A DNA stretch of 64,000 nucleotides, from contig JAFGKD010000094.1 of assembly GCA_016928775.1 (NCBI GenBank), forward strand, positions 9,504 through 73,503, read 5' to 3'. Of the stretch, positions 3,283-59,700 are shown piece after piece (the stretch's first letter is position 1; each line of letters starts with the position of its first letter). The notes beneath the pieces were generated by a model that worked only from the letters and a program-made list of their open reading frames with translations, did not search any database and was not told the origin of the DNA. This DNA comes from Candidatus Zhuqueibacterota bacterium. GTDB taxonomy: Bacteria; Zhuqueibacterota; Zhuqueibacteria; Residuimicrobiales; Krinioviventaceae. A program made the position numbers and the translations under genes.

Positions 3283-6200
3283 CTATTTGAGCAGCACCAT
3301 CCGGTTTGTCTGGATAAAATCGCCGGCTTCGATGCGGTAGAGATAGATGCCCGAAGGTTGCTTGGCCGCATCCCAAACAACACTGTGGTAACCGGCAGCA
3401 ATCTGTGCATCAACCAGTGTGACAATGTGTTGACCAATGACATTATAGACGCTGATCTTCACGTGTCGTTCTTCCGGCAACTGGTAATTGATGGTTGTTG
3501 TCGGGTTGAACGGATTTGGATAGTTGTTATCTAATGCAAAGGTTTCCGGCATTGCGGCGATGTCCGCATCTTCCGCCTGGAATCCTTCTTTGCTGTCGAA
3601 CAGAACTTCAAACTCGACCAATTGCACCCAACCGGCAGTCGGTTGCGTGATGACTAGTTTGACATATTTACCGAATTGTGGTGTATCGATACGGTAATAG
3701 GTCATTTCTCCACCATTCTGGCGAGTCGCATCGAGAATGAGCGTCCATGTCGCCATATCATCCGAAACATAAACCTTGAACTGGCGCACCTGACGGCCTT
3801 CATAGACGTCATCATCAAAGCCATTATCCGTCGCCAGGCCAATCTTGTTGACCGGCATTTTGGCATTATTCGAGAATTGGAAAATGGCGTAAAGCGGGTC
3901 ACCTTTTGTGGTCACCGTGCCATCCCAGCCTTCACGATCACCATCAATGGCATTATCCCATCCTTCACCTTTGCTCGTTTCCGAGCCTTCCACAAGGACG
4001 AGCTCGCCTTTTTGTCCTGCGTTGCCAAAGAAGCTGACGAAAGACCCTGATTCATTGTCGCCCGGCTTATCATTCAAAATAATCGCGCCATGCGCAACCG
4101 CAAAAATCTGATAGGTACCAGGATTGGTCGTCTTGAGCGTAGTCTTGTAGACGCCGTTCGCCGCATCCGTCAGATCCAGTGGGCCGAACATGCCAGGCTG
4201 GCAATCGGTCATGTAAAAATGAACATCTTGTTCATCATAAATTGTGATCGGATTGCCGAGATCATCGACCAGTTTTACCGTGATTTGCGCTTCATCTTTT
4301 CCATCCGCGAGGTGCGGCGTGGTGACGGTCAACAGTGATTGTTCCATATCCGGTACCACGATGTCTTCATACGCCTCAAACTCGGAGATTTGTCGCCAAC
4401 CGGCGAGACTGTCGAGATCGGAATCCATGACCTCAAGTTTCAGGTTCGTGACCTGCACGGCCGGACTCAGCTCGAATTCATTCCAGCCACCGCCAACAAT
4501 CAGTGACTCAACGACCGGGGTATAGGGATCGGTCGGTGTCAACGCGTTTGAAGAAATACGGACTTTGCGCACCCAGCGACCGACATTGCCCATGCCGGCA
4601 TCAGCTTTGAGACGGAGTTTCGTGACCATCTTGGTTTTGCCGTCGGCAAAGTTAAATGTCGCCCAGGGATATACACCCGGAGTCTCTTCGCGGACGGTCG
4701 CAACGCCGGTCCAACAATAATCATCGGCATCTACAGCGGCTGCCCACGGTTCGTGCGGATAATCGCCGATACCATCGATGAATTCCAGGGGCGCGTAGCC
4801 GTTTGGCAGATACATTTCAATAAAGTCTTCCTTGATTTCCATCACCGAGCCAGCAGCGTTCGACGCTTTTTTCATCACATCATGGAAACCAAGATGACGT
4901 GGTTGCCAGTAGCAGTAATAGGGTTCCTTGCCGTACATCATCAGGCCCATGGACCAGGATGCATCCCAGATAAACTCTTCCGCCCAGGGATCGTCGGCAA
5001 TCTGGCAATGATCAAAGTAATTCACAAACACCGGCGAATGACCGAGATTGCGATCGGAATCAAAATCGACGACAGCCGGAATACCCACGAGTCGACAATC
5101 GAACGCACCATATGAATCGGCATCACCAAAGAATTCGAACAACGGGCCTTCTTCGACAATTTCAGCCTGAACTTTGAGATAATAAAGACCATCTTCCGGA
5201 AGTGTATAGACAACCCGGGCATCGTCCCACTCGTTCATGGGATTGATGTTTTTATTAACAGCCAGTTTGCCACTCGGTCCAATAAGTGTCACCATCGGAT
5301 TCAAGTCATCCATCCAGTCGGACTGCATCGTGCCGCAGCCGCTTCGATATTGAACAGGAGTCATGACCGTCGCTGCAATGGTTTGGCCTTCCTCGCCTTC
5401 AAACTTGAACCACCACGGCAATGTTGTTACATCTTCATCATCCGGCCACACTTCGCCTGTCCGGGGAATAATGCCGCTGAGTGTCTCGCCAATATTGATT
5501 GGAATCGCTTTGTTTTTATTATTGGGGAAAGAGCTTTTATGGCCTATTTTCTCCAAAGAAATAGAATAGCTGCCACTGCGTTCCCACCAGTTATACCAGG
5601 ACAGCGGGTCAGCGCCGACTTCGAGATAATAGGTGCCGTTTTTCGGCAGCGGTCCCCAGACGATGCGGGCATTCAGGCCAACGCCATCATCCATGGAGCT
5701 GTGCAGCCAGTCCAAATCACCCTGACCCCAGGTGCCATTACCAACGACTCCACCTTCAGCGAACAGCGCAACGCCGGGATCAAGGTCGCCGCACGGTTTG
5801 TCCGAATCGACGAGAACGCGGATATAGTCACCTTTTGCCCCCGTGAATTTAAAGAAATCACCATCAAGAACGGAGGTAATGGTGTGATCGTCAATGGTTT
5901 GACCATAAGCAATACCATTTGCCGCACCCGGCAAATTGTCGGGTTCGTATGCATCCGGTAGCGTCAGGTCAAAGGTGATATCATAGGAACCGACCTGCGT
6001 ATTGTATGCAGTTGCATATGGAGATGCATAAACCTTGGCATAGTATGTACCGGGGATCGGGAACGAGTACATCAACTCAACATCGAACAAACCCAATTCT
6101 GCATTGTAGGGATTGTAGGTATCGTCCATCGTATAGAGTGGCACCATTGCCGCGTCAAAAATCGTGACACAGGGATCAAGATCGCCCATATACGGCAGAA

Positions 6201-7194
6201 AGGTTTTATCCCAATCACCGTTATGCGCGCTTGGACCAGCGACAACGAGACCATGCAGCGCCGTACCCGGAACCGTCACGTCAAACTTGTAGAAATCGAC
6301 ATCGCCGGCAGGCATAATCGTGTGACCTGTCCTGACCGTGCCGTCAGTGAGCGTGTGTGCCTGGGGTTCCGTGTCATCCGGTTCGAATCCATCAGCACTG
6401 AGGAAACGCAATCCGATCTCATAGCTGCCGACAGTCGGCGGCGCCCAATATGGCGAAGATTCAACCGAGATGTAATAAATGCCGCTCTCCGGCACCTGGA
6501 TATTCACATAAGCATCCCAGCCGGTTCCGGAATCATCATCTTGCGCCAGGACGTTGCGATTCGGCAGATAGAGTGTGACAAATGGGTCCAGATCTGCTTC
6601 TGATGGTGGCAGGAGTTGATATGGATCGTCTTTGGAAGACCAGAACGGATTTGGCGTTACAGTGACGATTTCAATAATGTCACCCGCATTGGCGGAGAAC
6701 CAGAAAAAGTCAACATCGCCGGCCGGATAAACGTTATGTTTTACGGAGACAAAACCATCCACCAGCTTTTCGCCCTGATTATGCGAATTATCGGGCTCAA
6801 ACTCATCCGCTTCCATACCAGCGGCAGCGCGCGTTAAAACCGTGCCGCCATCTTTTTTCATAAAATTTGCAATAATAGCTTCTTTTTCAGCGCTGTATTT
6901 CTGTTCGATTTCATAATCTGCTTGCTTTTCTTCAAAAGCAGCATGACGTTCGTAGACCTGTGCCGGATCTTCTGCTTTGATATCCATCTTGGCATCCAGC
7001 ATCGCCGAACGAATAGCTTGAAATCGTTCTGCTCGATCAGCGCCCGTGATTGCAGGTGTTTCGTAGGCTTCCTCGAGCGTTCGAGGTAAATCCGCTTTTT
7101 GAGAGGATATCGTATCTGCTACAACAGAGAACAAACCAACAAAAAGCGTGAGTATGACGAGAAAGCTTGTCATAGCAGTTGTTTTGAATTTCAT
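3283..7194 (-). CDS. Giant secreted protein with repeated pre-peptidase C-terminal (PPC) domains, a discoidin/F5-8-type-C-like domain, and a T9SS type-A C-terminal sorting domain
   Basis: 1303 aa with signal peptide MKFKTTAMTSFLVILTLFVGLFSVVA. PPC-type repeats appear several times (EPDNS...GDVDFFWFSANAGD, EPDDT...GDVDFYKFDVTVPG, EPDNL...DGDFFKFTGAKGD). A jelly-roll-like segment lies near the C-terminus (GWDGTVTTKGD...FKVYVSDDMATWTLI...VQLVEFEV). The C-terminus NYPNPFNPTTTINYQLPEERHVKISVYNVIGQHIVTLV...SGIYLYRIEAGDFIQTNRMVLLK is about 65% identical to the sorting domain of the neighbouring Kelch protein. Confidence 0.75.
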   Translation of the reverse strand: MKFKTTAMTSFLVILTLFVGLFSVVADTISSQKADLPRTLEEAYETPAITGADRAERFQAIRSAMLDAKMDIKAEDPAQVYERHAAFEEKQADYEIEQKYSAEKEAIIANFMKKDGGTVLTRAAAGMEADEFEPDNSHNQGEKLVDGFVSVKHNVYPAGDVDFFWFSANAGDIIEIVTVTPNPFWSSKDDPYQLLPPSEADLDPFVTLYLPNRNVLAQDDDSGTGWDAYVNIQVPESGIYYISVESSPYWAPPTVGSYEIGLRFLSADGFEPDDTEPQAHTLTDGTVRTGHTIMPAGDVDFYKFDVTVPGTALHGLVVAGPSAHNGDWDKTFLPYMGDLDPCVTIFDAAMVPLYTMDDTYNPYNAELGLFDVELMYSFPIPGTYYAKVYASPYATAYNTQVGSYDITFDLTLPDAYEPDNLPGAANGIAYGQTIDDHTITSVLDGDFFKFTGAKGDYIRVLVDSDKPCGDLDPGVALFAEGGVVGNGTWGQGDLDWLHSSMDDGVGLNARIVWGPLPKNGTYYLEVGADPLSWYNWWERSGSYSISLEKIGHKSSFPNNKNKAIPINIGETLSGIIPRTGEVWPDDEDVTTLPWWFKFEGEEGQTIAATVMTPVQYRSGCGTMQSDWMDDLNPMVTLIGPSGKLAVNKNINPMNEWDDARVVYTLPEDGLYYLKVQAEIVEEGPLFEFFGDADSYGAFDCRLVGIPAVVDFDSDRNLGHSPVFVNYFDHCQIADDPWAEEFIWDASWSMGLMMYGKEPYYCYWQPRHLGFHDVMKKASNAAGSVMEIKEDFIEMYLPNGYAPLEFIDGIGDYPHEPWAAAVDADDYCWTGVATVREETPGVYPWATFNFADGKTKMVTKLRLKADAGMGNVGRWVRKVRISSNALTPTDPYTPVVESLIVGGGWNEFELSPAVQVTNLKLEVMDSDLDSLAGWRQISEFEAYEDIVVPDMEQSLLTVTTPHLADGKDEAQITVKLVDDLGNPITIYDEQDVHFYMTDCQPGMFGPLDLTDAANGVYKTTLKTTNPGTYQIFAVAHGAIILNDKPGDNESGSFVSFFGNAGQKGELVLVEGSETSKGEGWDNAIDGDREGWDGTVTTKGDPLYAIFQFSNNAKMPVNKIGLATDNGFDDDVYEGRQVRQFKVYVSDDMATWTLILDATRQNGGEMTYYRIDTPQFGKYVKLVITQPTAGWVQLVEFEVLFDSKEGFQAEDADIAAMPETFALDNNYPNPFNPTTTINYQLPEERHVKISVYNVIGQHIVTLVDAQIAAGYHSVVWDAAKQPSGIYLYRIEAGDFIQTNRMVLLK

Positions 7195-7828: not shown

Positions 7829-8617
7829 TCAGACGAATGAATCCGAAAAGAACCATGTCGCAAGTTCCTTCGCGTCGACCGGTTTATGAGAATATTCATA
7901 ATCTATACGATTGACGGCCAAGGCGGCGCGGAAATTGGCCGCACACGCCAGGGGCTGAATTGAAAATTTCAATTCATCGTTTGGATAATGAATAGATCGT
8001 CGCAGGCCACTCTTTGAATCAGTCAGCACATCGACAGAAAACGAGTCCAGAGCAAGTGACAAACCGCGGCCCTTGGCTTTAATATACGCTTCCTTGCGCG
8101 TCCAGCAATCGTAAAAGCGGATCACACGCTCTCTTTCCGGAACCTGCTGCAGATCATCCAACTCGTCAGCGGAAAAGTATTTTTTCGCGATGTCAATGGT
8201 TGCAAAAGAGGGGCGCATATATTCAATATCAACACCGAGCTCATGACTCTGGCTGAACACAAACAGCGCTTGATTTTGGGAGTGCGAGACATTAAAGACC
8301 GTTTGTCTCTCTCGGCGCCTGTTTTCGACAAAAGGTTTGCCATAATCATTATAATCAAAGGTGATCTGGCGTGGATCAGTAGCCAGATAAAAACCTAACA
8401 AAATTCTCAGGATCAACCGGGCTGTTGTAAATCGGTCGCGATCGTGCGCAAAATAGAAACGTTTCGCCCTCTCGAGCTCGTCCTGTGATAAGATGGCATC
8501 TGCAAAAGACAACAAAGATTGACATAAATCCAGGTCAGCCGCCCAAACATGCACGGTTTCTCCGGACAATGGTAAATGGATGAGTGTCTTTTTCCATTCC
8601 ATTTCACGCCATCTCAA
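7829..8617 (-). CDS. Sfp-type 4'-phosphopantetheinyl transferase
   Basis: 262 aa with PPTase core motifs: FNVSHS, GVDIE, WTRKEAYIKAKG (the W/FxxKEAxxKA motif). The start overlaps the upstream thioesterase gene by 4 nt (8614..8617), which indicates translational coupling. Confidence 0.85.
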   Translation of the reverse strand: MRWREMEWKKTLIHLPLSGETVHVWAADLDLCQSLLSFADAILSQDELERAKRFYFAHDRDRFTTARLILRILLGFYLATDPRQITFDYNDYGKPFVENRRRERQTVFNVSHSQNQALFVFSQSHELGVDIEYMRPSFATIDIAKKYFSADELDDLQQVPERERVIRFYDCWTRKEAYIKAKGRGLSLALDSFSVDVLTDSKSGLRRSIHYPNDELKFSIQPLACAANFRAALAVNRIDYEYSHKPVDAKELATWFFSDSFV

Positions 8618-9384
8618 AAATGATTGTCAAGCAAGCTGCTCAAATCCTTTACTAATGTTTGCAATACCTCTTTTTCATGACTGTGCAGAAAAAAATGATC
8701 ACCGTCAAACTGACGCAGTTGGATTCCGGCGGTCGTATGCTGTTCCCAGGCCGCCAGGTCTTCTTGCTGGACATCCGTGTCATTGATACCGCCATAGACA
8801 GTAATAGGACACTCTAACGGCAAACCGGGCTTGAATGCAAAGGTCTCGCACACTTTAAAGTCATTGCGAATAATCGGCAAAAACAATTCTCGTAATTCCG
8901 GATTTGTCAATACGGCATCGGGTGTTCCATTCAAGGTTCTGAGCTTTTGCGTAAATTCGTCTTCTGGCAACCGATGAATGTGCTCCCGATCTTTGGACAC
9001 GTGTGGTGCCGCATGCGCAGATACGAATAAATGTACGGGTTGCGGCAAAAAGTATCGCCGCAGGAACCGTGTTAATTCGAAACTGATCAATGCGCCCATG
9101 CTGTGACCAAAAAACACAAATGGTTTGTCCAGATAGCCGGCGATGCCCTGGGCAATTTCCCTGACGATATCCGAAACAGAGTCCAATAATGGTTCGCCTA
9201 ATCGAGAGCCATGTCCTGGCAGCTCGATCGGCACAATCTGCATCTCCTCCGGAGAGGCATTATCCCAACCGCGAAAGACATTGGCGTTGCCGCCGGCATA
9301 ATGAAAGCAAAAGACGCGCACCCGCACGTCCGGTCGGGGAATAAAATTCAGCAGCCAGGGACTTGTCAGTCGGGTATCGATCAT
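8614..9384 (-). CDS. Type II (editing) thioesterase, alpha/beta-hydrolase
   Basis: 256 aa. GHSMGALISFE is the GxSxG nucleophile elbow typical of TEII. The N-terminal FCFHYAGGNANVFRGW is typical of GrsT/SrfAD-like proteins. A distal His lies in DGDHFFL. Confidence 0.85.
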   Translation of the reverse strand: MIDTRLTSPWLLNFIPRPDVRVRVFCFHYAGGNANVFRGWDNASPEEMQIVPIELPGHGSRLGEPLLDSVSDIVREIAQGIAGYLDKPFVFFGHSMGALISFELTRFLRRYFLPQPVHLFVSAHAAPHVSKDREHIHRLPEDEFTQKLRTLNGTPDAVLTNPELRELFLPIIRNDFKVCETFAFKPGLPLECPITVYGGINDTDVQQEDLAAWEQHTTAGIQLRQFDGDHFFLHSHEKEVLQTLVKDLSSLLDNHF

Positions 9385-9393
9385 ACAGTTTGC

Positions 9394-9609
9394 CTATGCT
9401 GCTTCTTCCATCTTCTTTCTCAGACTCAGGGGACGCATATCTGTCCATACCTCTTTAATATAAGCGAGGCATTCATCTTTTTTGCCGGATTTACCAACGG
9501 ATTTCCAACCGAGAGGTATCTCTTTATCAACCGGCCAGATGGAATATTGTTCTTCATGATTCTTCACAACGTTATAAGTCGTGTTATCGTCTTTGTCATC
9601 CCAACTCAT
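9394..9609 (-). CDS. MbtH-like protein
   Basis: 71 aa. [60 protein letters not shown] carries the invariant MbtH signature (N-x-E-x-Q-x-S-x-WP ... P-x-GW ... C-L-x-Y-I ... WTD-x-RP). Confidence 0.9.
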
Positions 9610-9698
9610 GATTTCTCCTGTACTTTAAGTTGCTAGTTCAAAATAAGAATTTTCATAATGTTTGCTCTCAGCGCAATCGCCGTTTTGTACACAAAAAT

Positions 9699-11030
9699 TT
9701 AGTCTACCGGAAAAATAGCTTGTTCACCAATAGGCGGTCTAATGTCAGGCTGGATATCATCCTTGTCTTTTAACTCACGTGAATCAAATACCAGAAACTG
9801 ACGAAATGCCTTAAAAAATAACATGCTTGATGTTATCAATACCATAGATATACTACATGCCAAATAAATTGGCGGAATATTTTTGTCCATCAGATCAGCC
9901 AGATAGCCTGACAAGGCCATGGCGATCGGCGCAGCAGCGCCCTCAATGGTGGCCAATGCGCCAAATACCCGACCCCGCAATCTGCTTTGTGTTGTGGCCT
10001 GCAAAATCGTCATAATATTTACAATGACAAATCCTCCGAATGCACCGGACAGAAAAGCCAAACCACCCACGATGTAAATATCCCGAACAAACGCCAACGC
10101 GCCATAGAGAACCGCATCGAGCAACAGCAACGTCACAAGCAAAATTGCTCTCTTTTCCTTTTCGAATCGAAGAAGCCCGGCAATAGAGTAGCCGACAATA
10201 CTGCCAACTGCAAAAATAGAAGTCAAATAACCATACCATTCAATCCAAGATTGACCGAGCAGCAATGTATCTTCGAGATAAAAAGGCAAAAGAAGGATAA
10301 CAGCGGTTGCGAAAAAACTGAGCGCTGCTGATACAATGACCAGATTTCGAAGTCCGACATTGCTCCAAATAAATTTGATCCCTTCGACAAGATCTTGTTT
10401 GAAATTTGCAACAACCTCTTCGCTCTCTTTTACTTTGGACGGCAGTTTCTGAGGAATTGTAATAAAGGCTTCGCTGAATGCCGAGAACAAAAAGGTCACA
10501 CCATTGATGAGAAATAAAACAGGTGCACCAAACAGAGCGTATAATTGGCTTCCCAACGGGCGGCCAATGATGGCGGATATGTTCATGGAAATCATACCCA
10601 TCGAATTTGCGCCAGGCAGTTTATTCTTGGGCACAATGTCCGGAATTGCCGCTGAAATCGCCGGACCGAAAAACGAGCTCACAACGGCTGAGAGCGTCGA
10701 TGTAAAAAAAAGTGCGACAATGAGCATTGGCATCCGGTGCGGCATAAAGAAAAAGGCAGCGCCCAAAGCCAGCATGAGGATGCCGTTTAAAATATCGGTC
10801 ACAACGATAATTTTCTTTCGGGAATTCCGATCTGCAAAAACGCCACAAAAAGGCCCGAGGACGATGGCCACGGCACCGGCAATAGCGCTGATCGTTCCGA
10901 GCATGATGCCTGAATCCGTGGTATCTTTGATCCATGCAAGCATGGCGATCAAAAATACTTGCGTGCCCATACGGCTGACAAATTGACCCTGCCAGAGAAG
11001 AAGAAAATTCTTATTGAAAAGTTTACTCAT
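9699..11030 (-). CDS. MFS transporter (EntS/MFS_3-like putative exporter of the pathway product)
   Basis: 443 aa with about 12 hydrophobic segments. The N-terminal FLLLWQGQFVSRMGTQVFLIAMLAWI is typical of the enterobactin-exporter-like MFS subfamily. It sits inside the NRPS operon. Confidence 0.75.
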   Translation of the reverse strand: MSKLFNKNFLLLWQGQFVSRMGTQVFLIAMLAWIKDTTDSGIMLGTISAIAGAVAIVLGPFCGVFADRNSRKKIIVVTDILNGILMLALGAAFFFMPHRMPMLIVALFFTSTLSAVVSSFFGPAISAAIPDIVPKNKLPGANSMGMISMNISAIIGRPLGSQLYALFGAPVLFLINGVTFLFSAFSEAFITIPQKLPSKVKESEEVVANFKQDLVEGIKFIWSNVGLRNLVIVSAALSFFATAVILLLPFYLEDTLLLGQSWIEWYGYLTSIFAVGSIVGYSIAGLLRFEKEKRAILLVTLLLLDAVLYGALAFVRDIYIVGGLAFLSGAFGGFVIVNIMTILQATTQSRLRGRVFGALATIEGAAAPIAMALSGYLADLMDKNIPPIYLACSISMVLITSSMLFFKAFRQFLVFDSRELKDKDDIQPDIRPPIGEQAIFPVD

Positions 11031-11191
11031 CTTTTGGATTCTACTCTTTTAGATAGAAAAAATCGTCATTATTATGATCAAAATCGCTTGCATGAAAACG
11101 GCCTTGCTTTTTTAACATAAGAGCATTACAAAAAAATCCGGTATGAACTACATACTTTAATTGATTGTTAATTATGTGACAAAATCCTGAT

Positions 11192-12313
11192 TCATGGTTC
11201 TTTTGGCTCCATTGTTGCGCGGGCATTTTTCGGATTTACTATCTCGTAATCTAAATTTTCAAAAGTGGATATCCATGCCGTGTTAATCTTTTCTATCTCA
11301 TCCGCCGGCAAACTCGGGAACGTATTCTTTTTATAGTCTTTTATGGATTCGAGATGTTTTTTTAGCGCTGGTTCAAAACGATTAAAATTCGGGATGCGAA
11401 AATATTCGTAAATGGACGCGACATGACCGTAAATGTCCTGTTCAAATTCTTCAAAGGATATCTCAAACAATCGCTCTTTCGGCACGACTGCCTTGTCTCG
11501 CCAAAACGCATCATACATTGTAGAATAGTTTTCCAGGATGTATCGATTCCAATCCTCAAGATTCGGGCGTTGCAGACAAGTATGCTGCAAAGCTTCCGCG
11601 TATAGTTTTTTCGTCGATTGATAAACTCTGTACGGATTCCGATAAATGTGAATAAATCGGGCGTCAGGAAAAATGTCGAGCAATATTTTCATCCGCCCAA
11701 GATGCACAGGTGATTTGAGCACGAGCGGACGTTGATATTTGAACGTCAACTTTTTGTAAAATAGAACCATGGCATCACGCCATCGCTCAAAATCAGCTTG
11801 CGAGGCGCGCTCGAATGTATGATATTTTGCATACTTTTCGTGATTTCTTGTGAATGCCCACGCGATGATCGGCGAACGCTGACACATCATCGAAATCGCG
11901 GTTTCGTCTTCATCCGGACTGGAAAAGGTGATCTTTACATTATCCATATGCCGCTTTTCGGCTTTGGCATTTTCCAGTCTTTTGGCAATCTTTTCTTCCC
12001 GACTGAGAAATACATGCGGATTTGAAATTTCAAATTTATTCGCATAGCCAAATTGCTCATCCAAAGAAAAAATACTGTGCAACAGCGTCGTGCCACAGCG
12101 CCAGTGACCGAGTATAAAAATTGGTGACTCTATCTTTATATTTTCCACCTTGTGCAGAAATTTTCGATCATCAAAATATTTATAAAAGCTGTTCAATCGT
12201 GACAAGTGATTCAAAGCTCCTTTTCTTTGTCTGTACTCGTCATCGATGCTGTTCCCCTCAACTTGTTTTAGTTCCTCCCAATCTTTTTTTATTATTCCAA
12301 GAAGTGAATCCAT
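11192..12313 (-). CDS. Stand-alone PAPS-dependent sulfotransferase (Sulfotransfer_3-like)
   Basis: 373 aa. The 5'-phosphosulfate-binding loop GHWRCGTTLLH lies at 12076..12108. The 3'-phosphate-binding region is KSPVHLGRMKILLDIFPDARFIHIYRNPYRVYQS. It has the same fold signature as the sulfotransferase domain embedded in NRPS B. Confidence 0.75.
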   Translation of the reverse strand: MDSLLGIIKKDWEELKQVEGNSIDDEYRQRKGALNHLSRLNSFYKYFDDRKFLHKVENIKIESPIFILGHWRCGTTLLHSIFSLDEQFGYANKFEISNPHVFLSREEKIAKRLENAKAEKRHMDNVKITFSSPDEDETAISMMCQRSPIIAWAFTRNHEKYAKYHTFERASQADFERWRDAMVLFYKKLTFKYQRPLVLKSPVHLGRMKILLDIFPDARFIHIYRNPYRVYQSTKKLYAEALQHTCLQRPNLEDWNRYILENYSTMYDAFWRDKAVVPKERLFEISFEEFEQDIYGHVASIYEYFRIPNFNRFEPALKKHLESIKDYKKNTFPSLPADEIEKINTAWISTFENLDYEIVNPKNARATMEPKEP

Positions 12314-12368: not shown

Positions 12369-15300
12369 TTATCCTGCTAATGAGCTTACGACATCCTCCA
12401 ACTCTGAATTGAATGTTTTTGCCAGCCTTCGAATAGTGCGCTCTTTATATAAATGTGCGCTATATAACCAACGAACATGCAATTCTCGTCCACTGACAGA
12501 TGCGACAATGTGCAAAAGCGCACCTTTTGATTCAGTCGAGAATTGCTCATCGCGGATGCGTTCCGGCGCCATCTGAAAGGGCAAAGCCACCTTTGTATCA
12601 AATTGATCGAACTGGCCGAGATAATTAAAATTCACCTGCGCATGATTGGTCTGTAAAAAAGCCGTCGACGCATCATTTTTCAAATATTTCAGAATGCCAT
12701 ACCCGACGCCACGATCGGGGACTGCCGCCAATTGATCGTGTATAGCAAGAATCTGCTCGCGCAAGTCCGTACCGACCAGTTCCAGATTAAGATAAAAAAT
12801 ACTGGTGAACCATCCCACCGTACGAGACAAATCGACATCTTCAAACAATGGCTCTCTTCCATGACCCTCCATTTCAACGGCAAGATAATTCTGTCCCGTC
12901 CATGGCGTCAAAGCACGTAACAGCGCCGTGAGCAGAACATCGTTGATGTTCGTGCCGAGTTTTTTGGGAATATCTTGCAACACCTTGTTCGTCACCTCAG
13001 ATGACAACGACAGGGTCAGTTGCTCGGCAGAACCATAGGTGTTTTCGTGACTGTCAAAATCGCGCGGCAAGGAATAGGGTGCAAAGCGCGCCTGATTCTC
13101 CTGCCAGAAATGAATTTGCTTTGCCGCGGCCTCGGATTGTGCATAATGCACCAGCCTGTTCGCCCAAACCTTGTAGTTAGTCGTTCTCGGCGGCAACTGG
13201 ATCGGTTGGTTTTCGCTCAATTGACCATAAATATTGAGCAAGTCTTCCAGGATAAACCGCCAGGAGACGCCATCGGTGATTAAATGGTGTAATACCAGCA
13301 ACAACCGCGAATGTTTTTTCATCCTGAAATATATAACTTTGAGCAGCGGTGCAGTGCCGAGATCAAAGGTTTTTTGTACTGCCGCAGCTTTCTCCTCGAT
13401 GAGTTTTTTGACCTCCCAGGATCGAGAGTCCGTCACATCGACCATCTCAAAGGGAAGGTTGTCGATGGACTCGACAAATTCCTGTCGCCACTCGCTTTCC
13501 TGCTGCTCAAAACGTAGCCTGAAGCAATCATGATGCTGCGTCATAATTGTCAGTGCATGCTGCAAAATGTCGAGATCGAGATCATACGCCAAAGCAACCA
13601 TGAGTGACGTATTGAACTGCTGCGGTGCCAGTGTATGATGCTCAAAAAACCAGTGCTGAATCGGCGTCAGGGGCGCCGGGCCGACTGCTTTTTCCTGTTC
13701 AACAGATGTCGGATCAACAGCCTGTGCCAGGTCCGCCAACTCTGCCAAATTACCCGCCTGAAACATATGACGCGGCGAAATCTTGAGTCCAGCCTGATTG
13801 GCGCGGGAAATCACTTGAATGCTTAATATCGAATCACCGCCTAGCTCAAAGAAATTATCATAGCGCCCAACCTGTTCAGTGTGCAGCACCTGCTTCCAGA
13901 TATCCGCCAGGATGCGCTCGTCATCGGTTTCCGGTTCTGCAAATTCGTGTTCAAACTCGGGACGAATCGACTCGGGCAGCGGCAGAACTCGCCGGTCAAT
14001 TTTGCCGTGTGCGGTGAGCGGAAAGGCGGTCAATCGAACAAAATGCGCCGGCACCATGTAGTCGGGCAGCTTTTCTTTCAGCACTGTACGCAGCTCATTC
14101 ACCGTCACCGATACCGATTCATCCGGAATAACATAGTAGGCGGCCAATTTTTGATCTCCCGGCTTATCTTCGCGCAGCAGCACAAGAGCCTCTTTGACCT
14201 CCGGATGTGTGTTCAAAACAGATTCGATTTCGCCCAACTCGACGCGGAAGCCGCGGAGTTGAACCTGATGATCGATACGACCGAGATACTCGATATCACC
14301 ATTTGCCGTAACGCGAGCCAGATCGCCGGTCTTGTAGAGTCGTGCTCCCGGTTGATCGGCAAACGGATTCGGAATAAATTTACCTGCTGTCAATTCGGGA
14401 CGCCTCAAATAGCCGCGCGCCAAACCGGCGCCACCAACGTACAGCTCGCCCGGCACCCCGATCGGCAAAGGCTCATAATTTTGGTCAAGAATATAAATCT
14501 GCAAATCCGGTATAGGGCCGCCGATCATACTGCCCGGCGCCGATTCAATATCCAACTGCGCCAGCGGCCGGTAGGTCACATGCACTGTCGTTTCGGTGAT
14601 ACCGTACATATTGATCAACTGCGGCTTGACATAGCCATGTTCTTCAAACCAGGGCTTGAGACTACCGAGCTCCAGCTTGTCACCGCCAAAAATCACATAG
14701 CGTAATTTCAACTCCGGAGCCATACCGTCGAGCTCTTCTTGTTGAATGAGCTGCCGGAACGCTGACGGCGTTTGATTGAGCACGGTCACGCCCTTTTCAG
14801 CCAACAATTTGTAAAAATTCTCCGGTGATCGACTCACCATATAAGGTACAATGACAACCTGACCGCCGTAAAACAGGGCGCCCCATAATTCCCACACCGA
14901 AAAATCAAAGGCAAAAGAGTGGAACAGTGTCCAGATGTCACGTTCGTCAAAATGATACCAGTTTTCGGTGGCATGAAACAAACGCGTGACGTTCTCATGG
15001 CACACCATCACACCTTTGGGCGTGCCCGTCGATCCGGATGTATAGATCACATAGGCAACATTCTGCGGCGACACAGTGACGTTGGTATTTTCGCTGGTCT
15101 CGTATTCAATGAGCGCCCAGTCCGAATCAAGGCAGACTTGTCGGGTTTCCACACCGGATAATTCTTGTGCAATAGCCTCCTGTGTGAGCAGCAGTTTCAT
15201 GCCCGAGTCCATCAGGATAAAATCCTTGCGGTCGGCGGGGTACATTGGATCGATCGGCACATAACCGGCGCCGGCTTTGAGAATGCCAAGAATGCCGATG

Positions 15301-18300
15301 ACCATCTCCAGGGAACGTTCGAGGCACAATCCGACGAGATCATCTTGAGCAACGCCCTGGCGTCTCAGGAAATGCGCTAACTTGTTGGCTTTACGATTCA
15401 GCTCGCCATAGGTTAATTGTGAATCTTTTAATGACACCGCGACCGCGTGCGCATTAATGGCGACCTGTTCTTCAACAATCTGGTGTATGCAACGGGCATC
15501 GTGGAAATCGTGCGATACATCATTGCAAATGGCTAACATCTTTTGCCGTTCATCGGATTGAACCAAAGGAATTTGATAAATCGGCAGTTGCGACGACTCC
15601 GTCACACCCCGCAACACATTTTGCAGATGGGTGATCATCCGCTCGATGGTCCCGGCCTCGAAGAGATCAGTGTTGTATTCAAATGATCCGGTCAAACCCT
15701 GATCCGTCTCCATCAAGGTCAAGGTCAAATCAAATTTGGCAAGATGACTTTCGGCTTCCAGCGGTTCAATGCGCAAATCCGGCATGTCATATCGCTGTGA
15801 CGGAATATTTTGCAAAACAAACATCACCTGAAACAGCGGCGTGTGGCTCATATTACGTTCCGGCTGCACGGCGTCCACAATCATTTCAAACGGCACATCC
15901 TGATGCGCATAGGCGTCCAATGCCACCTGGCGCACCTGGTTCAGGACATCGACGAAGGTCATCGAGTTGGTTATTTCAGAACGCAGCACCAGCGTATTGA
16001 CAAAAAAACCGATGAGTGCTTCTGTCTCTTTGGTGTTGCGATTGGCAATGGGCGTTCCAACAATGATATCATCTTGCCCGGAGTAGCGCTGCAAAAGGAC
16101 GTTGAATGCCGCCAACAGTGTCATAAAAAGCGTGGCATTGTGTTTACGAGACAGCTCATTGAGGCGAGTCAACAACTCACGATCAATTTCAAAGCCGATC
16201 GTGTCGCCGTTAAAGGTCTGAAATGCCGGACGTGGTCGATCCGTTGGTAAATTGAGCACGCCGGCTGCGCCGGCCAATTGTTGCTTCCAATAATTGAGAT
16301 GAAACTCAAGCACCTCATCCTTGAGCCATTGACGTTGCCAATAGGCGTAATCGGGATATTGAATTTTCAGGTCTGGCAGCTCCGGTGCCTGGCCCTGGCG
16401 AAATGCTTCATAATAGGCGGCAACTTCGGCAATAAAAATGCCCATGGACCAGCCGTCCGAGATGATGTGATGCATATTCAGCACAAAAACACTCGTCGTG
16501 ACATTTTGCTTAATCAGATGCAAGCGCACGAGTGGGCCTGTCTGCAAATCAAACGGGGTGGTGAATTCGCGATAAAGAAATTCCGGCACATCTTTTTCCA
16601 GCTCATCCTCGGACTTTTCCCGCCAATCCACAATGTGCAGTTTGAAGGAAATATTGTCCGAGATGACCTGTTGTGGTTTGCCATCTTGGGTGATAAAAGT
16701 CGTGCGCAAGGATTCATGTCGATAGGCGACCGCTTCAAGGCTCTTGCGGAAGGCATCGAGATCGAACTGTCCAACGAGACGTACAGCAGCCGGCAAATTA
16801 TACATGGGACTGCCGGGTTCCAGCTGGTCCAGGAACCAGAGTCGTTGCTGCGCAAAAGAGAGCGGCAGATTTGCCTCGCGCGCCACCGGCTCAATCGGCG
16901 GCGCCATCATCGCGTTCAATCGCGGATCAAAATGTTGCAGACTGAGTGCCATCTGAGCAATGGTGGGTGATTCAAAAATCATTGCAATAGGTACCTGGAG
17001 ACTGAACTGTTCGCGTACACGGGAAATGAGCTGGGTCGCCAACAGAGAGTGGCCACCGATATCGAAAAAGTTGGCGTAGACGCTGATATTGTCCAGGTGC
17101 AGCACATCCATCCATGCAGCGGTTAATTTGCGTTCAATGTCGTTTCGAGGTGTCACCATCTCCACATCGGCTTGTAAATGCTCACTTGTCGGCAGGGGCA
17201 GGGCGCGACGATCCACTTTACCATTGGGCGTCAAGGGTATTGTTGCAAGGCGGAAGACAATGTGCGGCACCATATAATCCGGCAGCGACTCACTGCACCA
17301 CTCGCGCAGTTGCTGATCGTTCGGATGTTCTTGATCTTCGGCAACGATATAAGCCACCAGCTTTTGATCACCGCGTCGCCCGACGATCTCGCGCACCAAC
17401 ACAACCGCCTGCTTTATTTTCTCATGCCGAATGAGCACCTGCTCTATCTCGCCCAACTCGATGCGAAATCCGCGCAACTTGACTTGATGATCGATGCGCC
17501 CCAGGAATTCAATATTGCCATCGGCTAAATAACGCACCAGATCACCCGTGCGATAGAGTCGCTCGCCTGCCCGGCCAAACGGATTAGGGCTAAAGCGCTC
17601 GGCCGTTAAATCCGGTCTGTTGTGATACCCGCGCGCCAGACCAAGACCGGCAATACAGAGCTCGCCGGGAACGCCCGGCGGGACGAGCTGCATCAAATCA
17701 TCAAGGATATACAGACGAACGTTGCCAATGGGTTTGCCAATCGGCATGGTGGGTGCATTAGCTAATTCTGTGACCGGGTAACTCGAGGCGCAGACCGTAT
17801 TTTCGGTTGGCCCGTACGCATTCAAAAATCTTCTTCCCCCCGACCATTTCGCCGCAATGTCTCGCGAGCAGGCTTCACCGGCAGACACGAGCGTCCGCAA
17901 GTGCTCGAGCCCGTCCGGAGACATCACCGACAGCGCAGTTGGCGGCAAGGTGATGGTGGTTATTTTGTGCTCCTGCAAATAGTGCTGCAAATCTGCTCCT
18001 GGCAAAACCTTATCTTTGGGGGCCAGGTAGAGTGTTGCGCCACTCACGAGAGTGGTAAAAATCTCGGATACCGACGCATCAAAACTGAACGACGCAAACT
18101 GCAAACAACGACATGTCTCATCCAGTTGAAAATCCTTGATCTGTTCCAGCGTCAGATTCACTAATCCGCGATGCTGCAGCATGGTGCCTTTGGGTTGACC
18201 GGTTGAGCCGGAGGTATAAATCATATAAGCCAGGTGATCGGCATTCGTCAGATTATCCGGATTCTCGGCGGATTCGTCCGCTATTTTCGCCCATTCGGCA

Positions 18301-21300
18301 TCCAGACGGATAATGTGCAGCTCGGGACGATCAAACTGTCCGGCAAGAAAATCTTGCGTGAGGAGCACCGTAATGTTAGCATCCGCCATTATATAATCGA
18401 TACGATCCTGCGGATAACCTGGATCGATGGGCACATAGACACCACCGGCTTTGAGCACGCCCAAAAGACCAACAACCTGCTCAATAGATTTCTCGACAGA
18501 AATGCCGACGAGTTTTTCCGGCCCAACACCCAACGCTCTTAAATAATGTGCCAGGGTATTGACCCGCTGGTTTAACTCGGCGAATGTCAATAGCTCCCCC
18601 TCAAAGTAGAGCGCCGGCGCATCCGGCGTGCGAGCAATCCTTTCCTCGAACAGTTCATGGATGCATTTGTCACGCGGGAAGCTGACATCCGTTGCATTCC
18701 AGGATTGTATAATGGCTGTCTTTTCCGCTTCTGTGACCAGTTCCAGCTCGCTAATCTGTGCATGCGGACTTTTTACCATCTGCTGTAACAACAAGACAAA
18801 ATGGTCAGCCATACGCTGAATGCTCTCTTTTTTAAAGAGATCTGTATTATATTCGAACTCGGCATAATAGCCGTCGCTGGATTCAGCCATCACCAGAGTG
18901 ATATCAAACTTAGCGGCGCGTTCATCCGCCTCCACGACCTCCATGGCCAAAGAAGACTGTTCAAAACCTATCGATCCTCGAGGTGTATTTTGCAGAACAA
19001 ACATCACCTGGAAGAGCGGTGAGCGGCTCATATCGCGTTCGCGTTCCAGTCTATCGACCAACTGTTCAAACGGTACATCCTGATGCGCGTAAGCATCCAG
19101 GGTGTAATCGCGTACCTGTGTCAGCAGCTCTTCAAAAGTCATTCGATTGGACAATTCGGCGCGCAGCACCAGTGTATTGACAAAAAAGCCGATGAGTGCC
19201 TCGGTCTCGGAATAGTTGCGGTTGGCGATGGGCGATCCGACCAGAATCTCCTCCTGGTGGGTGTAACGGTAGAGCAACGACTGGAAAGCGGCCAACAGGG
19301 TCATGAACATGGTGGCGTCGTGCTTTTGACTCAAGTCGCGTAATCCATCGACAATTGCGCGAGGAATTTTTATCGATACAGCATCGCCATTAAAAGTTTG
19401 TATACCCGGCCTCGGATAATCAGTCGGGAGATCGAGAACCGGCGGATTGACGCCGATCTGATCTTGCCAAAAATTGATCTGCTTCTCGAGGACGGCTTCG
19501 GTCAGCCACTCGCGCTGCCAGGCCGCGTAATCCGCGTATTGAATAGCAAGTTCCGGCAACTGCGGTGGTCGGTTCGCCCGGTAGGCCTGATAGAGTATTC
19601 CGAATTCCTGCATCAGCACATTTGTCGACCAGCCGTCGGAAATAATATGATGCATGGTGAACATCAAAACATGTTCCTCTTGACTCAGGCGGATCAAACC
19701 GCCGCGATACAATGCTCCTTCATCAAGCTTGAATGGCCGCATGGCATTGTCCGTCACCAGTCGGGACATTTCGAGGTCACGCTCTTGCTCCGATTTTTTG
19801 CTGAGATCATAGATCGGCAACTCAACTGGTTGCGGTTGCAGGATGCGCTGTTTCGGCGTGCCGCGCTCTTCAATAAAAATGGTTCGCAAGGCTTCATGTC
19901 GGCGCACGATTTCAGTGATTGACCTTTCAATCGCATCAATATCAAGTTCGCCGCTTATTTTAATAGCGATGGGAATATTATAGTTGGCATTCTCCGGCGC
20001 TAATTGATCCAGGAACCAGAGTCGCTGCTGCGCAAAAGACAGGGGCAGATCACCATGACGAGGTACCGGTTGGAGCGGCGGCGCCATCCGCCCGTCCTGC
20101 TGTTGGCGAGCGCTGTCAATGTGGCGAACCAGGCCGACAATCGTCGGCGTTTCAAAAAGAGACCGCAACGGCAATTCGACAGCAAAAACATCGCGAATCC
20201 GCGACATCAATTGGGTCGCCAACAGCGAATGGCCACCAAGCTCAAAAAAGTTATCCAATACACCAATCCGATCCACATGCAGCAGCTCCAGCCAAATATC
20301 GGCTAACAGCTCTTCCTGCGCATTGCGCGGGGCGACAAATTCTGTTGTGCTCTGCAAATTTTCATATTCTGGCCGAGGCAGGGCGCGCCGGTCCACTTTG
20401 CCACTGGAGGTGAGTGGAAAAGCATCTAATTGCACAAGCGCCACGGGGCGCATATACTCGGGTAATTGCTGCCGCAGCAGCTCAAACAAGGCATCATGTT
20501 CAATACTCTGCCCCGCGACAACGGTATAATAGGACACTAATCGTTTGTCACCTGGTGAGTCCTCCCGGACGAGGCTCAGTGCGCTGTCAATAGCAGGGTG
20601 TTGCTGCAGTACGGCATCTATCTCACCCAGCTCAATCCGGTAGCCTCTAATTTTCACCTGGCTATCCATACGGCCGAGGAAAATCAGCAAACCATCGTTC
20701 AGGTAGCGGACGAGATCGCCGGTTTTATAGAGGCGTTCTCCCGGTTTCTTTCCGAATAGATTGGGGATAAACCGTTCGGCGGTCAAGTCCGGGCGATTCA
20801 AATAGCCGCGCGCCACACCTTCGCCGCCAATATACAGCTCTCCGGCAACACCGGCGGCAACCGGCTCGAGTGTGTCGTTTAGCACATAAACAACGCTGTT
20901 GGTGATGGCCCTGCCGATGGGTACCGAGCCTATGCCACGCCACCCGCTCGCTTCGTACACCACACATCCGACAACTGTTTCTGTTGGTCCGTACTCGTTG
21001 AACAAAAGTGTGTTCGGCGCATTCTTTTGCCAGAAAGAAATCTGCTCGGCGGTCAAATTCTCGCCGCCAATGATAAAGCTGTGCGTCAATCCGGCGGCTT
21101 CTTCCGCCGGCACCTGACGTCCCAACAGCTCCAGATGCGCCGGGGTAATTTTTACGATATTAAAATCTTTATAGTGGCGCAGCGCCCGGCTCAGCGCTTC
21201 GAGATCGGCGTCATCCGGTAACAGGACAGCCGTTTTGCCGTTCAAAAAGGGCGTAAAGACCGCCGTCACCGTGGCATCAAAAGCAATGGTCGAATGAACG

Positions 21301-59300: not shown

Positions 59301-59700
59301 CGAGCGGCAGACTCGACACATCCAGTTGCTCTAATTGAATAGCGCTTTCGGCCTGCAGTCGTTGCACCGGCACACCATTTTTGCTCTCGAAAACAGTGCG
59401 TAGCACCTCGTGCCGCTGCCCCAGGCTTGTCAAGACATGCTCAATCGCAGCAATATTGATGATGCCCTTGATGGATACGGCAGCGGGATTGTTATACATG
59501 GGATTCCCCGGTTCCAGTTGGTCGAGGAACCACATCCGCTGTTGGGCATAGGAGAGCGGAAAGTGTTCTCGCTCGCGGCTCTGCGGCAAAATGCGAGTTT
59601 TCTTTAAATCAACATTTTGCTCGGCTAGTATTTTTTCCAAAAGCTTTCTCTTTTCCGGAGAGAGCTTGCTGATGTCTCTGAAAATATCGTTCATAGGCAA
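56317..59700 (-). CDS. NRPS A (1127 aa): C-A-T single module with N- and C-terminal docking peptides; first amino-acid module after the PKS
   Basis: Docking head FRDISKLSPEKRKLLEKIL. C domain: LSYAQQRMWFLDQLEPGNPMYN with MHHIISDAW (a D-A variant of HHxxxDG). A3 SAYIIYTSGSTGAPKG lies near 57745, A4 is ASTNFDAALEQIF, and A5 is NAYGPTETT. The T domain is FFELGGHSMLGTQ. The acidic tail is ASMLSEVENLSEEELQRLLSEE. Confidence 0.9.
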   Translation of the reverse strand: MPMNDIFRDISKLSPEKRKLLEKILAEQNVDLKKTRILPQSREREHFPLSYAQQRMWFLDQLEPGNPMYNNPAAVSIKGIINIAAIEHVLTSLGQRHEVLRTVFESKNGVPVQRLQAESAIQLEQLDVSSLPLDERQKRLHQESVQISQAPFNLQTGPMMRALLIKMDTNDYVFLVTMHHIISDAWTLTVFIKEFAALYQSYTSGTSVVLPDLPIQYVDYACWQRDYLQGEVLQQQLGFWHEKLAGGDTALNVPIDHPRPKIQTHNGDVFYFTIRQDITKNLESLSKKYDVTLFMTLLGALALLLRRYSGQDDISIGTPIANRNRSELESLLGVFVNTLVMRTSLSGNPSFIDLVKRVKETALGAFAHQDIPFEMIVEELKPERDMSRPPYFQTMFVMQNAPAQQLVLPNVTIEPLQLHTPTAKFDLTFVLEPKNGGLDGQIVYNTDLFDSATIERMIGHIKTLFKEIGDHADQPISDIQYLTAHEKAVLLSAKNESARQPLHFEHSICYYLEHQVVRTPDATISCGSETLSYAAFNARANQLARQLLERGVQPDSIVGIYLERSIDLLVCMLAILKAGAAFLPLDPDYPPDRIEYMLADSKVSVVISHSKIATLIKTDSLSILFVDEHLEPNSDSDAQNISPTIHPQQSAYIIYTSGSTGAPKGVLITHAAFVQHCLGMQQFYQLTPQDRILQFASTNFDAALEQIFPTLLTGASLFMRDNTVWSPEELIRFIRDQQLTVINLPTAYWNQCVKIWAEDGLKESSVRLVIIGGDLMSTDSLTPWQQSPLRQARLINAYGPTETTITATAFDIPVQWREEVDEGSIPIGQALLQRAVYILDAHGFPVPIGLPGELYIGGYTLARGYLNRPDLTAERFVPNPFYGAGERLYRTGDLVRYNNRGHIEFLGRVDQQVKIRGYRIELGEIEAMLNQYPGMKNGIVISRQSGSAEKVLVAYYEFVGENEPSVTNLRDFLQTRLPDYMIPGAFMQLERMPMTPAGKINRRALPEPDQLRPHVETEYIAPRTATEKRLTEILAEVLKVEHVGVLDNFFELGGHSMLGTQIVSQLREEYQVELPLRVLFENPTAEGIARAIAEEQAAQVDEQELASMLSEVENLSEEELQRLLSEE

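Follow-up and report, generated by a model that had tools for sequence, protein, structure and literature searches.

A stand-alone sulfotransferase of the Stf1/Stf9 type beside a non-ribosomal peptide synthetase cluster of a candidate division KSB1 bacterium: a probable trans-acting tailoring enzyme

The sulfotransferase gene and its family

The stretch of DNA analysed here, 64,000 nucleotides of contig JAFGKD010000094.1 from a Candidatus Zhuqueibacterota bacterium (hereafter the window), carries a gene for a stand-alone sulfotransferase (ST). The large genes of the window are all encoded on the minus strand and make up a single polyketide synthase/non-ribosomal peptide synthetase (PKS/NRPS) cluster with six NRPS genes and 13 modules, and the ST gene is co-directional with the NRPS genes. 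A second ST is embedded as a domain in one of these NRPSs. The elements needed first are the following (C, condensation; A, adenylation; T, carrier; E, epimerisation domain).

11192..12313, minus strand: stand-alone ST gene, 373 amino acids (aa), an open reading frame (ORF) from ATG to stop matching Pfam Sulfotransfer_3
12369..26522, minus strand: last NRPS gene, (C-A-T)x4-E
9699..11030, minus strand: gene of a major facilitator superfamily (MFS) transporter, likely the exporter (Pfam MFS_1, E 9e-42), kept beside the ST in related loci
47374..56310, minus strand: NRPS gene with the embedded ST, 2978 aa, domain order from Pfam and motifs
52015..52857, minus strand: embedded ST domain of the CurM/OLS type, residues ~1152-1432 of the NRPS 47374..56310, flanked by the carrier domain that ends module 2 and the condensation domain that follows

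The plus-strand translation of 11192..12313 is riddled with stops; the coding strand is the minus strand, and in its ORF all three motifs quoted in an earlier note on this DNA were located, namely GHWRCGTTLL (residues 69-78), KSPVHLG (200-206) and FIHIYRNPY (220-228). That note had also placed the gene behind the last NRPS gene and ahead of the exporter, in agreement with gaps of 55 nt between the stop of the last NRPS gene and the ST start and of 161 nt between the ST end and the MFS gene. Neither of these flanking gaps contains a terminator-like site, and sigma-70 promoter matches around the gene were not used, the consensus being not applicable to this bacterial group. The start codon is supported, because the N-terminus is conserved among homologues from Met1 on. 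With its own start and stop, the ORF shows no fusion to a carrier domain, and its product is identical to RQW04808.1 / MBN1481962.1 at NCBI, “sulfotransferase [candidate division KSB1 bacterium]”.

Comparison with Pfam revealed a match to Sulfotransfer_3 (PF13469) that is far beyond chance, given an E value of 5e-33 and 115.6 bits against a cut-off of 27, and that covers profile positions 1-213 of 216; the family predicted in the earlier note, and not a different one, was thus recovered. No model of NCBIfam matches the protein. Searches with phmmer aligned it with the mycobacterial STs Stf9 and Stf1 at E values of 1e-6 and 1e-4, while a profile of its family reached 4.6e-20 for Stf9 and 1.1e-16 for Stf1, and the similarity in fold to STs of this type extends over the full length, including the large alpha-helical insertions on the acceptor side. 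The resemblance to CurM and OLS, on the other hand, is faint (phmmer: 4GOX, E 0.062; 4GBM not recovered), and the catalytic motif PPE(L/M)xLL of the CurM-type STs is missing. In fold as well as in sequence, the protein is not a member of the StaL/Teg lineage. The pairing with a cytochrome P450 that marks the Stf3 type (EC 2.8.2.40) was not seen either, no P450 being encoded within the window. The stand-alone ST is a sulfotransferase of the mycobacterial Stf1/Stf9 fold that is predicted to depend on 3'-phosphoadenosine-5'-phosphosulfate (PAPS).

Integrity of the stand-alone sulfotransferase

An alignment of 56 homologues with 36-92% identity yielded 24 invariant positions, and the stand-alone ST retains all of them (24/24). 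Among these are G69, W71, R72, G74, and T75 of the 5'-phosphosulfate loop, and the PAPS loop G69-H-W-R72-C73-G74-T75-T76 comes directly after strand 65-68 of the structural model. K200, R225, and S233 are likewise invariant and were aligned by hhalign with the DKTP and RHPY...S motifs of the CurM-type family; H79, R121, D124, E135, E137, and H204 are further invariant residues that have been kept, and H100 is common to 50 of the 56 homologues. A loss of catalytic residues, which the earlier note had considered, was not observed, all invariant residues being present and only the base itself not being placed by the alignment. Judged from its sequence, the stand-alone ST is intact and probably catalytically competent. 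A pseudo-enzyme was rejected on account of the full-length ORF without frameshift and the 24/24 invariant residues.

The GC content at third codon positions (GC3) is 0.43 for the ST gene, 0.43 for the MbtH-like gene and 0.47 for the MFS gene, compared to 0.55-0.58 for the NRPS genes and 0.57 for the embedded ST domain. The low values of the three neighbours (9394..12313, minus strand) hint that this accessory cassette differs in its history or in the way it is expressed.

Comparison with the embedded sulfotransferase domain

The embedded ST also matches PF13469 (residues 1154-1369, E 2e-27) and displays the motifs PPRSGSTLL, DKTPTYP, and YIHLVRHPY, which are analogous to those of the stand-alone ST. 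It is closely related to the ST domains of curacin CurM and of the olefin synthase OLS (4GBM, E 9e-69; 4GOX, E 9.5e-59), its catalytic motif reads PPELDLL with the Glu of PPEL kept, and the residue after PPEL is variable across the family (H/E/D/Q/Y), proteins joining an ST to a thioesterase (TE) domain included. NCBIfam gave a NoeE match below threshold.

Pairwise alignment of the two STs revealed 26% identity over 141 aa; a recent duplication was rejected on these grounds, as the earlier note had supposed. When both families were compared by hhalign, only the C-terminal half was aligned, from K200 to the C-terminus (probability 96%), R225 and S233 included. As far as can be read from the two sequences, the acceptor-binding halves are unrelated. 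The statement of the earlier note that both belong to the same family therefore stands at the level of PF13469 only: the embedded domain is of the CurM/OLS type and the stand-alone protein of the Stf type, and only the half that binds PAPS can be aligned. Since the motifs common to both constitute the PAPS cofactor site, they provide no evidence of a shared acceptor. For the embedded ST, a role in generating a leaving group as in CurM is not obvious, because it follows an Ile/Val-type module and not a beta-hydroxy residue.

Homologues, gene neighbourhood, and co-occurrence

The neighbours are unchanged beside homologues of the stand-alone ST with 92%, 68%, and 61% identity, i.e., an NRPS end, the ST, MFS and MbtH genes; genes for a TE and a phosphopantetheinyl transferase (PPTase) also stand beside the 92% and 68% homologues, and the 92% orthologue originates from another sample. 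A scan of representative genomes, in which the best match had 61% identity, uncovered about 20 loci with the same tail, down to 35% identity. Their blocks are arranged either as NRPS-ST-MFS-MbtH-TE-PPTase or as NRPS-MFS-MbtH-TE-PPTase-ST, several carry two tandem STs, and they belong to Calditrichota, Cytophagia, other Bacteroidota, Melioribacteraceae, Anaerolineales, and Chloroflexia. Relatives of similar or lower identity without an NRPS nearby occur in Planctomycetota, Verrucomicrobiota, cyanobacteria, and gut Bacteroidales.

In a distance-based neighbour-joining (NJ) tree of 90 homologues, computed without support values, all NRPS-linked STs form one clade apart from the members of Planctomycetota, Verrucomicrobiota, cyanobacteria, and gut Bacteroidales. 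This clade, which contains the ST of the window, consists mostly of metagenome-assembled genomes of the FCB group, plus Chloroflexota. Within the same tree, the tandem stand-alone STs are divided between two orthologous groups of old origin, and a third group, whose NRPSs end with T-E, contains the ST of the window. In an adjacent clade without NRPSs, the ST is followed by a cytochrome P450 in three Verrucomicrobiota (8859..11272 in L010 and 10001..12405 in L020, both identified by Pfam, and 6095..8508 in L011, identified by the heme-binding motif only; L numbers denote the loci that were fetched).

The embedded and the stand-alone ST of the window are 40 kb apart, and both types occur together in at least three other clusters. 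In L118, an embedded ST of the ELD type and a stand-alone ST of the Stf type are separated by 6.5 kb and accompanied by MFS and TE genes. On contig Ga0256841_1000106, two embedded STs (L089) are joined, roughly 55 kb downstream and with equal orientation, by an MFS-MbtH-TE-PPTase block behind which two stand-alone STs stand in tandem (L166). In a metagenome-assembled Melioribacteraceae genome, the embedded (L108) and the stand-alone ST (L025) are recorded on contigs of equal length (414,246 bp; “scaffold_2” and “_1000002”), presumably one and the same although the two loci are non-overlapping; the STs share their orientation and are spaced by about 40 kb, as in the window. The earlier note had left the choice between two sulfation events and functional redundancy; the former is favoured here, and redundancy is unlikely because both types are kept together across phyla and their acceptor halves are unrelated.

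The assembly line and its candidate acceptors

The remaining features of the cluster are listed from the upstream end (KS-AT-KR-ACP denotes the domains of the PKS module, KR being the ketoreductase).

59715..63992 (cut by the window end), minus strand: PKS module KS-AT-KR-ACP, from domain matches
60288..60881, minus strand: ketoreductase domain of the PKS module (Pfam KR, E 2e-34), whose beta-hydroxyl is a candidate acceptor for either ST
56317..59700, minus strand: NRPS gene whose first condensation domain takes over the PKS-bound chain
53341..54771, minus strand: A domain of module 2, before the embedded ST, code DAFFMGVTFK, Ile/Val-type
17211..18647, minus strand: A domain of module 12 in the last NRPS, code DASTVAAVCK, Tyr-type, proposed to load the acceptor residue of the stand-alone ST
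14001..15473, minus strand: A domain of module 13, the last module, code DFWNIGMVHK, Thr, alternative acceptor
12372..13715, minus strand: terminal epimerisation domain of the last NRPS, clustering with two internal E domains at 36% identity, canonical E motifs all present
9394..9609, minus strand: MbtH-like gene, 71 aa, 69-97% identical to PF03621 MbtH genes in L001-L003
8614..9384, minus strand: stand-alone TE gene, 256 aa (Pfam Thioesterase, E 2e-45)
7829..8617, minus strand: PPTase gene (Pfam ACPS and AASDHPPT_N)

Based on motifs and on clustering of the C-type domains, the 5' part of the cluster has the order PKS(KS-AT-KR-ACP); C-A-T; C-A-T-ST-C-A-T-E, and the rest the order DCL-A-T-C-A-T; C-A-T-C-A-T-E; DCL-A-T-C-A-T; (C-A-T)x4-E. 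The last NRPS thus ends with T-E and without a TE in cis, as do those of L001-L005, L007, and L009, and for releasing or editing the chain, no candidate is visible other than the small stand-alone TE (8614..9384).

Specificity codes were numbered on GrsA-PheA, and the spacing was verified. Besides the codes listed above for M2, M12, and M13, module M1 (DAENIGAITK) is of a basic type, M3 (DAQDLGMVDK) corresponds to Gln, M5 and M9 are Phe-type, M10 is assigned to Orn and M11 to Asn; basic residues of the peptide are predicted for M1, M6, M7, and M10. The code DFWNIGMVHK is known for Thr (PMC2533009, PMC12283262), and DAFFLGVTFK for Ile/Val in oscillapeptin (PMC2533009).

In the DNA beyond the window end at 64000 (1..9980 of L167), the PKS module is preceded by a protein of 3,097 aa with the order FAAL-ACP-KS-...-DH-ACP-C-A-T, whose A domain reveals the Tyr-type code DASTIAAVCK. 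As the KS-AT-KR-ACP module follows a Tyr-type module, it probably builds a Tyr-statine-like gamma-amino-beta-hydroxy unit. The candidate acceptors in the pathway are, consequently, the phenol of the head Tyr, the hydroxyl derived from the KR, Tyr12, and Thr13.

Some peculiarities of the locus were observed besides. An odd ORF of 238 aa, composed of a C-domain fragment and a carrier domain, lies between the FAAL protein and the PKS module in L167. The first condensation domain has HHIISDA (59161..59166, minus strand; residue ~179) instead of the usual HHxxxDG, and the TTG start of the NRPS 56317..59700 is probably wrong, the public gene call being the ATG two codons on (59694). Downstream of the cluster, 1823..3211 and 3283..7194 (both minus strand) encode secreted proteins, one a Kelch beta-propeller and one of 1,303 aa with PPC, F5_F8 type C and Ig-like domains; both carry the C-terminal sorting domains of type IX secretion, because of which the organism was placed in the FCB group.

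Embedded sulfotransferases and the conserved head in metagenomes

A metagenome scan with the embedded domain type was evaluated for the best 80 loci (L086-L165), and all of these (80/80) showed an NRPS context. Two classes of ST domains can be distinguished. Those of the PPELELL class follow Thr (30) or Ser (about 10) modules and are succeeded by a C domain, or by a TE in 18 cases, whereas those of the PPEL/MDLL class, comprising the domain of the window and its closest relatives (55-66% identity), stand after an Ile/Val-type module (DAFFxGVTFK) and before a C domain. This Ile/Val-type code class precedes the ST in 11 loci besides the window. We found a conserved head, PKS(AT-KR-ACP) - M1[DxENIGAITK] - M2[DAFFxGVTFK]-T-ST - M3[Gln]-T-E - aromatic-like module, in the window and in at least 12 loci from different samples (e.g., L087-L090, L093, L094, L099, L104, L143, and L108), indicating that the window is part of a widespread orphan lipopeptide family. 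A literature search for the NRPS architecture T-ST-C and its two ST classes found no paper, and a search for sulfated lipopeptides of Bacteroidota/Calditrichota and for Stf9 biochemistry found nothing.

The same scan gave some observations that concern other assembly lines. Eighteen metagenomic NRPSs end with A-T-ST-TE, mostly A(Thr)-T-ST-TE, resembling the CurM off-loading didomain behind an aminoacyl carrier (loci L122, L127, L131-L137, L141, L145-L147, L150, L151, L156-L158, and L164, with the ST at about 10,000 in most); such an end would predict sulfonation of the beta-hydroxyl of a carrier-bound Thr or Ser ahead of release. From A-T-ST protein fragments, no A-domain codes were recovered, no fragment extending to the A5 motif. 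In some lines, ST domains are found back to back (4866..6985 in L085, 8789..10933 in L108, and 8681..10849 in L102), a tandem T-ST-T-ST being directly seen only in L085, and L084, L089, L095, L114, L132, and L138 have several ST-bearing modules.

Discussion

Several things were observed directly: the stand-alone ST has the family and fold described, an intact PAPS site and the invariant residues, its gene neighbourhood is conserved, it falls within a clade specific to NRPSs, and the combination of an ST in cis with one in trans recurs. The explanation that we favour, with a probability of roughly 0.55 as a whole, is that of an Stf-type ST dedicated to NRPSs, which tailors in trans, probably at a Tyr, and is not a back-up of the embedded ST. 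Its parts differ in strength. That the enzyme is a trans-acting tailoring enzyme of the cluster is very probable, and that it is non-redundant with the embedded domain is likely. It belongs to a sub-clade of the Stf1/Stf9 family devoted to NRPS lipopeptide clusters, mostly of uncultured FCB-group bacteria, and would act in trans on a PKS/NRPS lipopeptide of about 14 residues made by the upstream genes. The acceptor would be the phenol of the last residue but one, a Tyr incorporated by module 12, and the enzyme may act on-line or after release. The sulfate ester would presumably stay in the product, which the adjacent MFS transporter would then export. The embedded CurM-type ST, for its part, would act at an earlier point, module 2 of the conserved head, where its substrate would be the acyl-peptide bound to the carrier, so that the pathway probably installs two different sulfates. 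A split into tailoring and activation between the two STs, as suggested in the earlier note, is possible.

As the acceptor, Tyr12 leads the candidates, although we place it slightly below even odds; an aliphatic hydroxyl of the head is doubtful, and Thr13 or another residue improbable. The link to Tyr stems from the tails of related clusters. Tyr-type codes are carried by 12/24 modules that lie upstream of a stand-alone ST at a distance of no more than 12 kb, versus 3/186 of all remaining modules in the loci fetched (Fisher p 9e-11), a comparison confounded by the descent of the clusters from each other and by the fact that tails were mostly compared with heads. All tails with a stand-alone ST (13/13) show a Tyr-type or closely related aromatic code, while four tails that have MFS, MbtH, or TE but no stand-alone ST display Thr, Ser or other codes and none of the Tyr type. 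The visible tails with two STs have an aromatic-like DA(E/D)T code in 4/4 cases, together with a canonical Tyr-type code in three (L012, L013, and L166). Dedicated bacterial STs for Tyr in peptides have been described, namely SslST and RaxST (PMC11143521).

Apart from this confounding, several points weigh against the favoured explanation. The number of stand-alone STs does not always match that of the Tyr-type modules: in the visible part of L009, L021, and L025, a single ST is accompanied by two such modules. The code DASTVAAVCK is one which we take to be that of Tyr, and a literature search for the Tyr code strings found none in papers. Regarding the enzyme itself, Cys73 in the PAPS loop (codon 12096..12098, minus strand) is unique (1/56), Ser being present in 43/56 homologues and the 92% identical orthologue also fitting this consensus. 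The catalytic base is unplaced, since phmmer and the profile against Stf9 and Stf1 are ambiguous around E135-E137 and the hhalign comparison with the CurM-type family reaches only the C-terminal half, leaving N-terminal base candidates unaligned; the invariant candidates are E135, E137, H79, and H204, and the less strictly kept H100 is a further one. With a GC3 of 0.43, moreover, co-evolution of the ST gene with this assembly line is not guaranteed. Finally, many homologues of the stand-alone ST have automatically been labelled as Stf3, EC 2.8.2.40, and ErSULT, which has a predicted Stf1-like fold and the same automatic label, sulfonates 3- and 16-hydroxyhexadecanoic acid in vitro, i.e., aliphatic hydroxyls and not phenols (PMC13449962).

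The activity of ErSULT speaks at the same time for the alternative that survives best, albeit as an unlikely one: the stand-alone ST might sulfonate an aliphatic hydroxyl of the head, the KR-made beta-hydroxyl in the Tyr-statine-like unit, with the embedded ST acting elsewhere, e.g., on the Tyr of module 0. Consistent with this are the ST-P450 pairs of three Verrucomicrobiota in the adjacent clade, which suggest sulfation of an enzymatically installed aliphatic hydroxyl, the existence of a hydroxyl derived from the KR, and the conservation of the head in clusters known with both ST types. However, several clusters have two stand-alone STs in tandem whose divergence is ancient, for which one hydroxyl cannot account, and presence and number of the stand-alone STs follow the aromatic modules of the tail. 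As the embedded ELD-type ST is always found at module 2 behind the PKS, it is the more natural candidate for the head hydroxyl.

Sulfate as a leaving group is established chemistry for the ST-TE of CurM. By analogy, the stand-alone ST might activate, sulfonating the beta-hydroxyl of carrier-bound Thr13 (or another hydroxyl), with the sulfate being lost at release, dehydration, or cyclisation by the trans TE. The end of the last NRPS would fit, being Thr-T-E without a cis TE and with the ST gene next to it, as is that of L003, and so would the many metagenomic NRPSs ending with A(Thr)-T-ST-TE. Nevertheless, this role is quite improbable, as the leaving-group chemistry belongs to the CurM lineage, outside of which the stand-alone ST falls, and the ST gene stands after the PPTase gene, away from the NRPS end, in many clusters. 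Homologues are found equally in clusters that end with a Tyr-type module (L007 and L009) or with a cis TE without Thr (L006, L012, L021, and L025). A CurM-like activating role specific to Thr13 was rejected because of such clusters ending without Thr, and the retention of the ST in L007 and L009, whose last module is Tyr-type and not Thr, speaks against any role specific to Thr13.

Still less probable is a role in self-protection, in which sulfation would neutralise a cationic lipopeptide inside the producer and the sulfate would be removed outside the cell as in a pro-drug. Several predicted basic residues (M1, M6, M7, and M10) and the position of the ST gene beside an exporter gene would be in line with it, but no sulfatase gene was found within the window or the related loci examined, a literature search found no precedent, and the idea is a statement of purpose that is compatible with the chemistry of the favoured explanation. 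That the stand-alone ST merely duplicates the embedded one, or that its gene arrived as a passenger of the MFS/MbtH cassette and is now decaying, is highly improbable: it would accord with the lowest GC3 of the cluster and with Cys73, but is countered by the integrity of the ORF and of its invariant residues, by the 92% identical orthologue with the same neighbours in another sample and the synteny across phyla, by the tolerance of position 73 in the family for S, T, N, and M, and by the unrelated acceptor halves of an ST pair that recurs in at least three other clusters.

Going beyond the favoured explanation, we tentatively put forward a wider picture, which has the odds clearly against it: a family of multiply O-sulfated lipopeptides of uncultured FCB bacteria (KSB1, Calditrichota, Ignavibacteriota, and Cytophagia) that would employ two unrelated ST lineages. 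A CurM-derived ELD domain would be fixed at module 2 of a FAAL-PKS-Tyr-PKS(KR) head and act on a substrate other than the usual beta-hydroxy thioester, and one or two Stf-derived trans STs, stemming from lipid-sulfating ancestors, would each sulfate one aromatic residue of the C-terminal tail. If this is true, the stand-alone ST would provide the first demonstrated case of an Stf-type enzyme acting on a non-ribosomal peptide.

With respect to its significance, the stand-alone ST defines an NRPS-dedicated branch of the Stf1/Stf9 family, for which there are two crystal structures and almost no known substrates, and an ST of the CurM type in cis and one of the Stf type in trans have repeatedly been joined in one assembly line, in phyla without cultured producers. 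The product of the cluster is predicted to be heavier than the unsulfated peptide by 80 or 160 Da. Should the acceptor be confirmed, the Stf family would gain a defined peptide substrate, the count of stand-alone STs relative to Tyr modules would become a handle for genome mining of sulfated lipopeptides, and the enzyme would be a candidate biocatalyst for regioselective peptide sulfation. More surprising than the stand-alone ST are the division of NRPS-embedded ST domains into two classes and the conserved head of a sulfated lipopeptide.

Comparison with known systems

Stf3 (EC 2.8.2.40) of the sulfomenaquinone pathway is paired with Cyp128, and stf3 and cyp128 form a gene pair in mycobacteria; the ST-P450 pairs of Verrucomicrobiota in the non-NRPS clade resemble it. 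Stf9 of M. avium (PDB 2Z6V) and Stf1 of M. tuberculosis (Rv1373, PDB 2ZQ5) have the same fold as the stand-alone ST at 15-19% identity, but are not encoded with NRPSs, and the physiological substrate of Stf1 has been stated to be unknown (PMC13449962). ErSULT of Eubacterium ramulus also has an Stf1-like fold (PMC13449962), and its label EC 2.8.2.40 is common to many homologues of the ST of the window. ErSULT and Stf3 act on free hydroxylated lipids, whereas the ST of the window belongs to an NRPS-linked clade and has no adjacent P450, a distinction drawn from descriptions and not from sequences.

StaL, Teg12-14, and Cpz8 are stand-alone PAPS-dependent STs of natural-product clusters and O-sulfonate hydroxyls of the scaffold, including phenols. 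They do the same kind of job as the stand-alone ST, StaL and Teg being of a different lineage. With the ST domains of CurM and OLS (4GBM, 4GOX), the stand-alone ST shares the superfamily, the Pfam model, and the PAPS half, while the embedded ST is of this very type. SslST, which modifies lanthipeptides, RaxST, and TPST1/2 have ribosomal peptides or proteins as substrates and, at 13-17% identity to the stand-alone ST, share only the core fold. SulN of sulfazecin is reportedly a trans ST working with an NRPS that N-sulfonates a carrier-bound diaminopropionate (Dap) before beta-lactam formation. The likeness, which is one by description, lies in the combination of a trans ST with an NRPS, and the cluster of the window has neither a Dap-type module nor a TE domain of the kind found in the SulN pathway.

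To our knowledge, sulfate esters are rare in non-ribosomal peptides, and the few tailoring STs known there (StaL/Teg, SulN, and the OciA domain) belong to other lineages. The ST domain of OciA, the oscillapeptin/cyanopeptolin synthetase of Planktothrix, provides a case in which the product keeps the sulfate, its side chain being a sulfated glyceric acid (PMC2533009); it differs from the stand-alone ST in being a cis domain of the loading region with the glyceric acid starter as substrate. While the job itself is thus of a known kind, what is new here is that NRPS clusters have recruited an ST of the Stf1/Stf9 type, and that it repeatedly occurs together with a CurM-type domain in cis.

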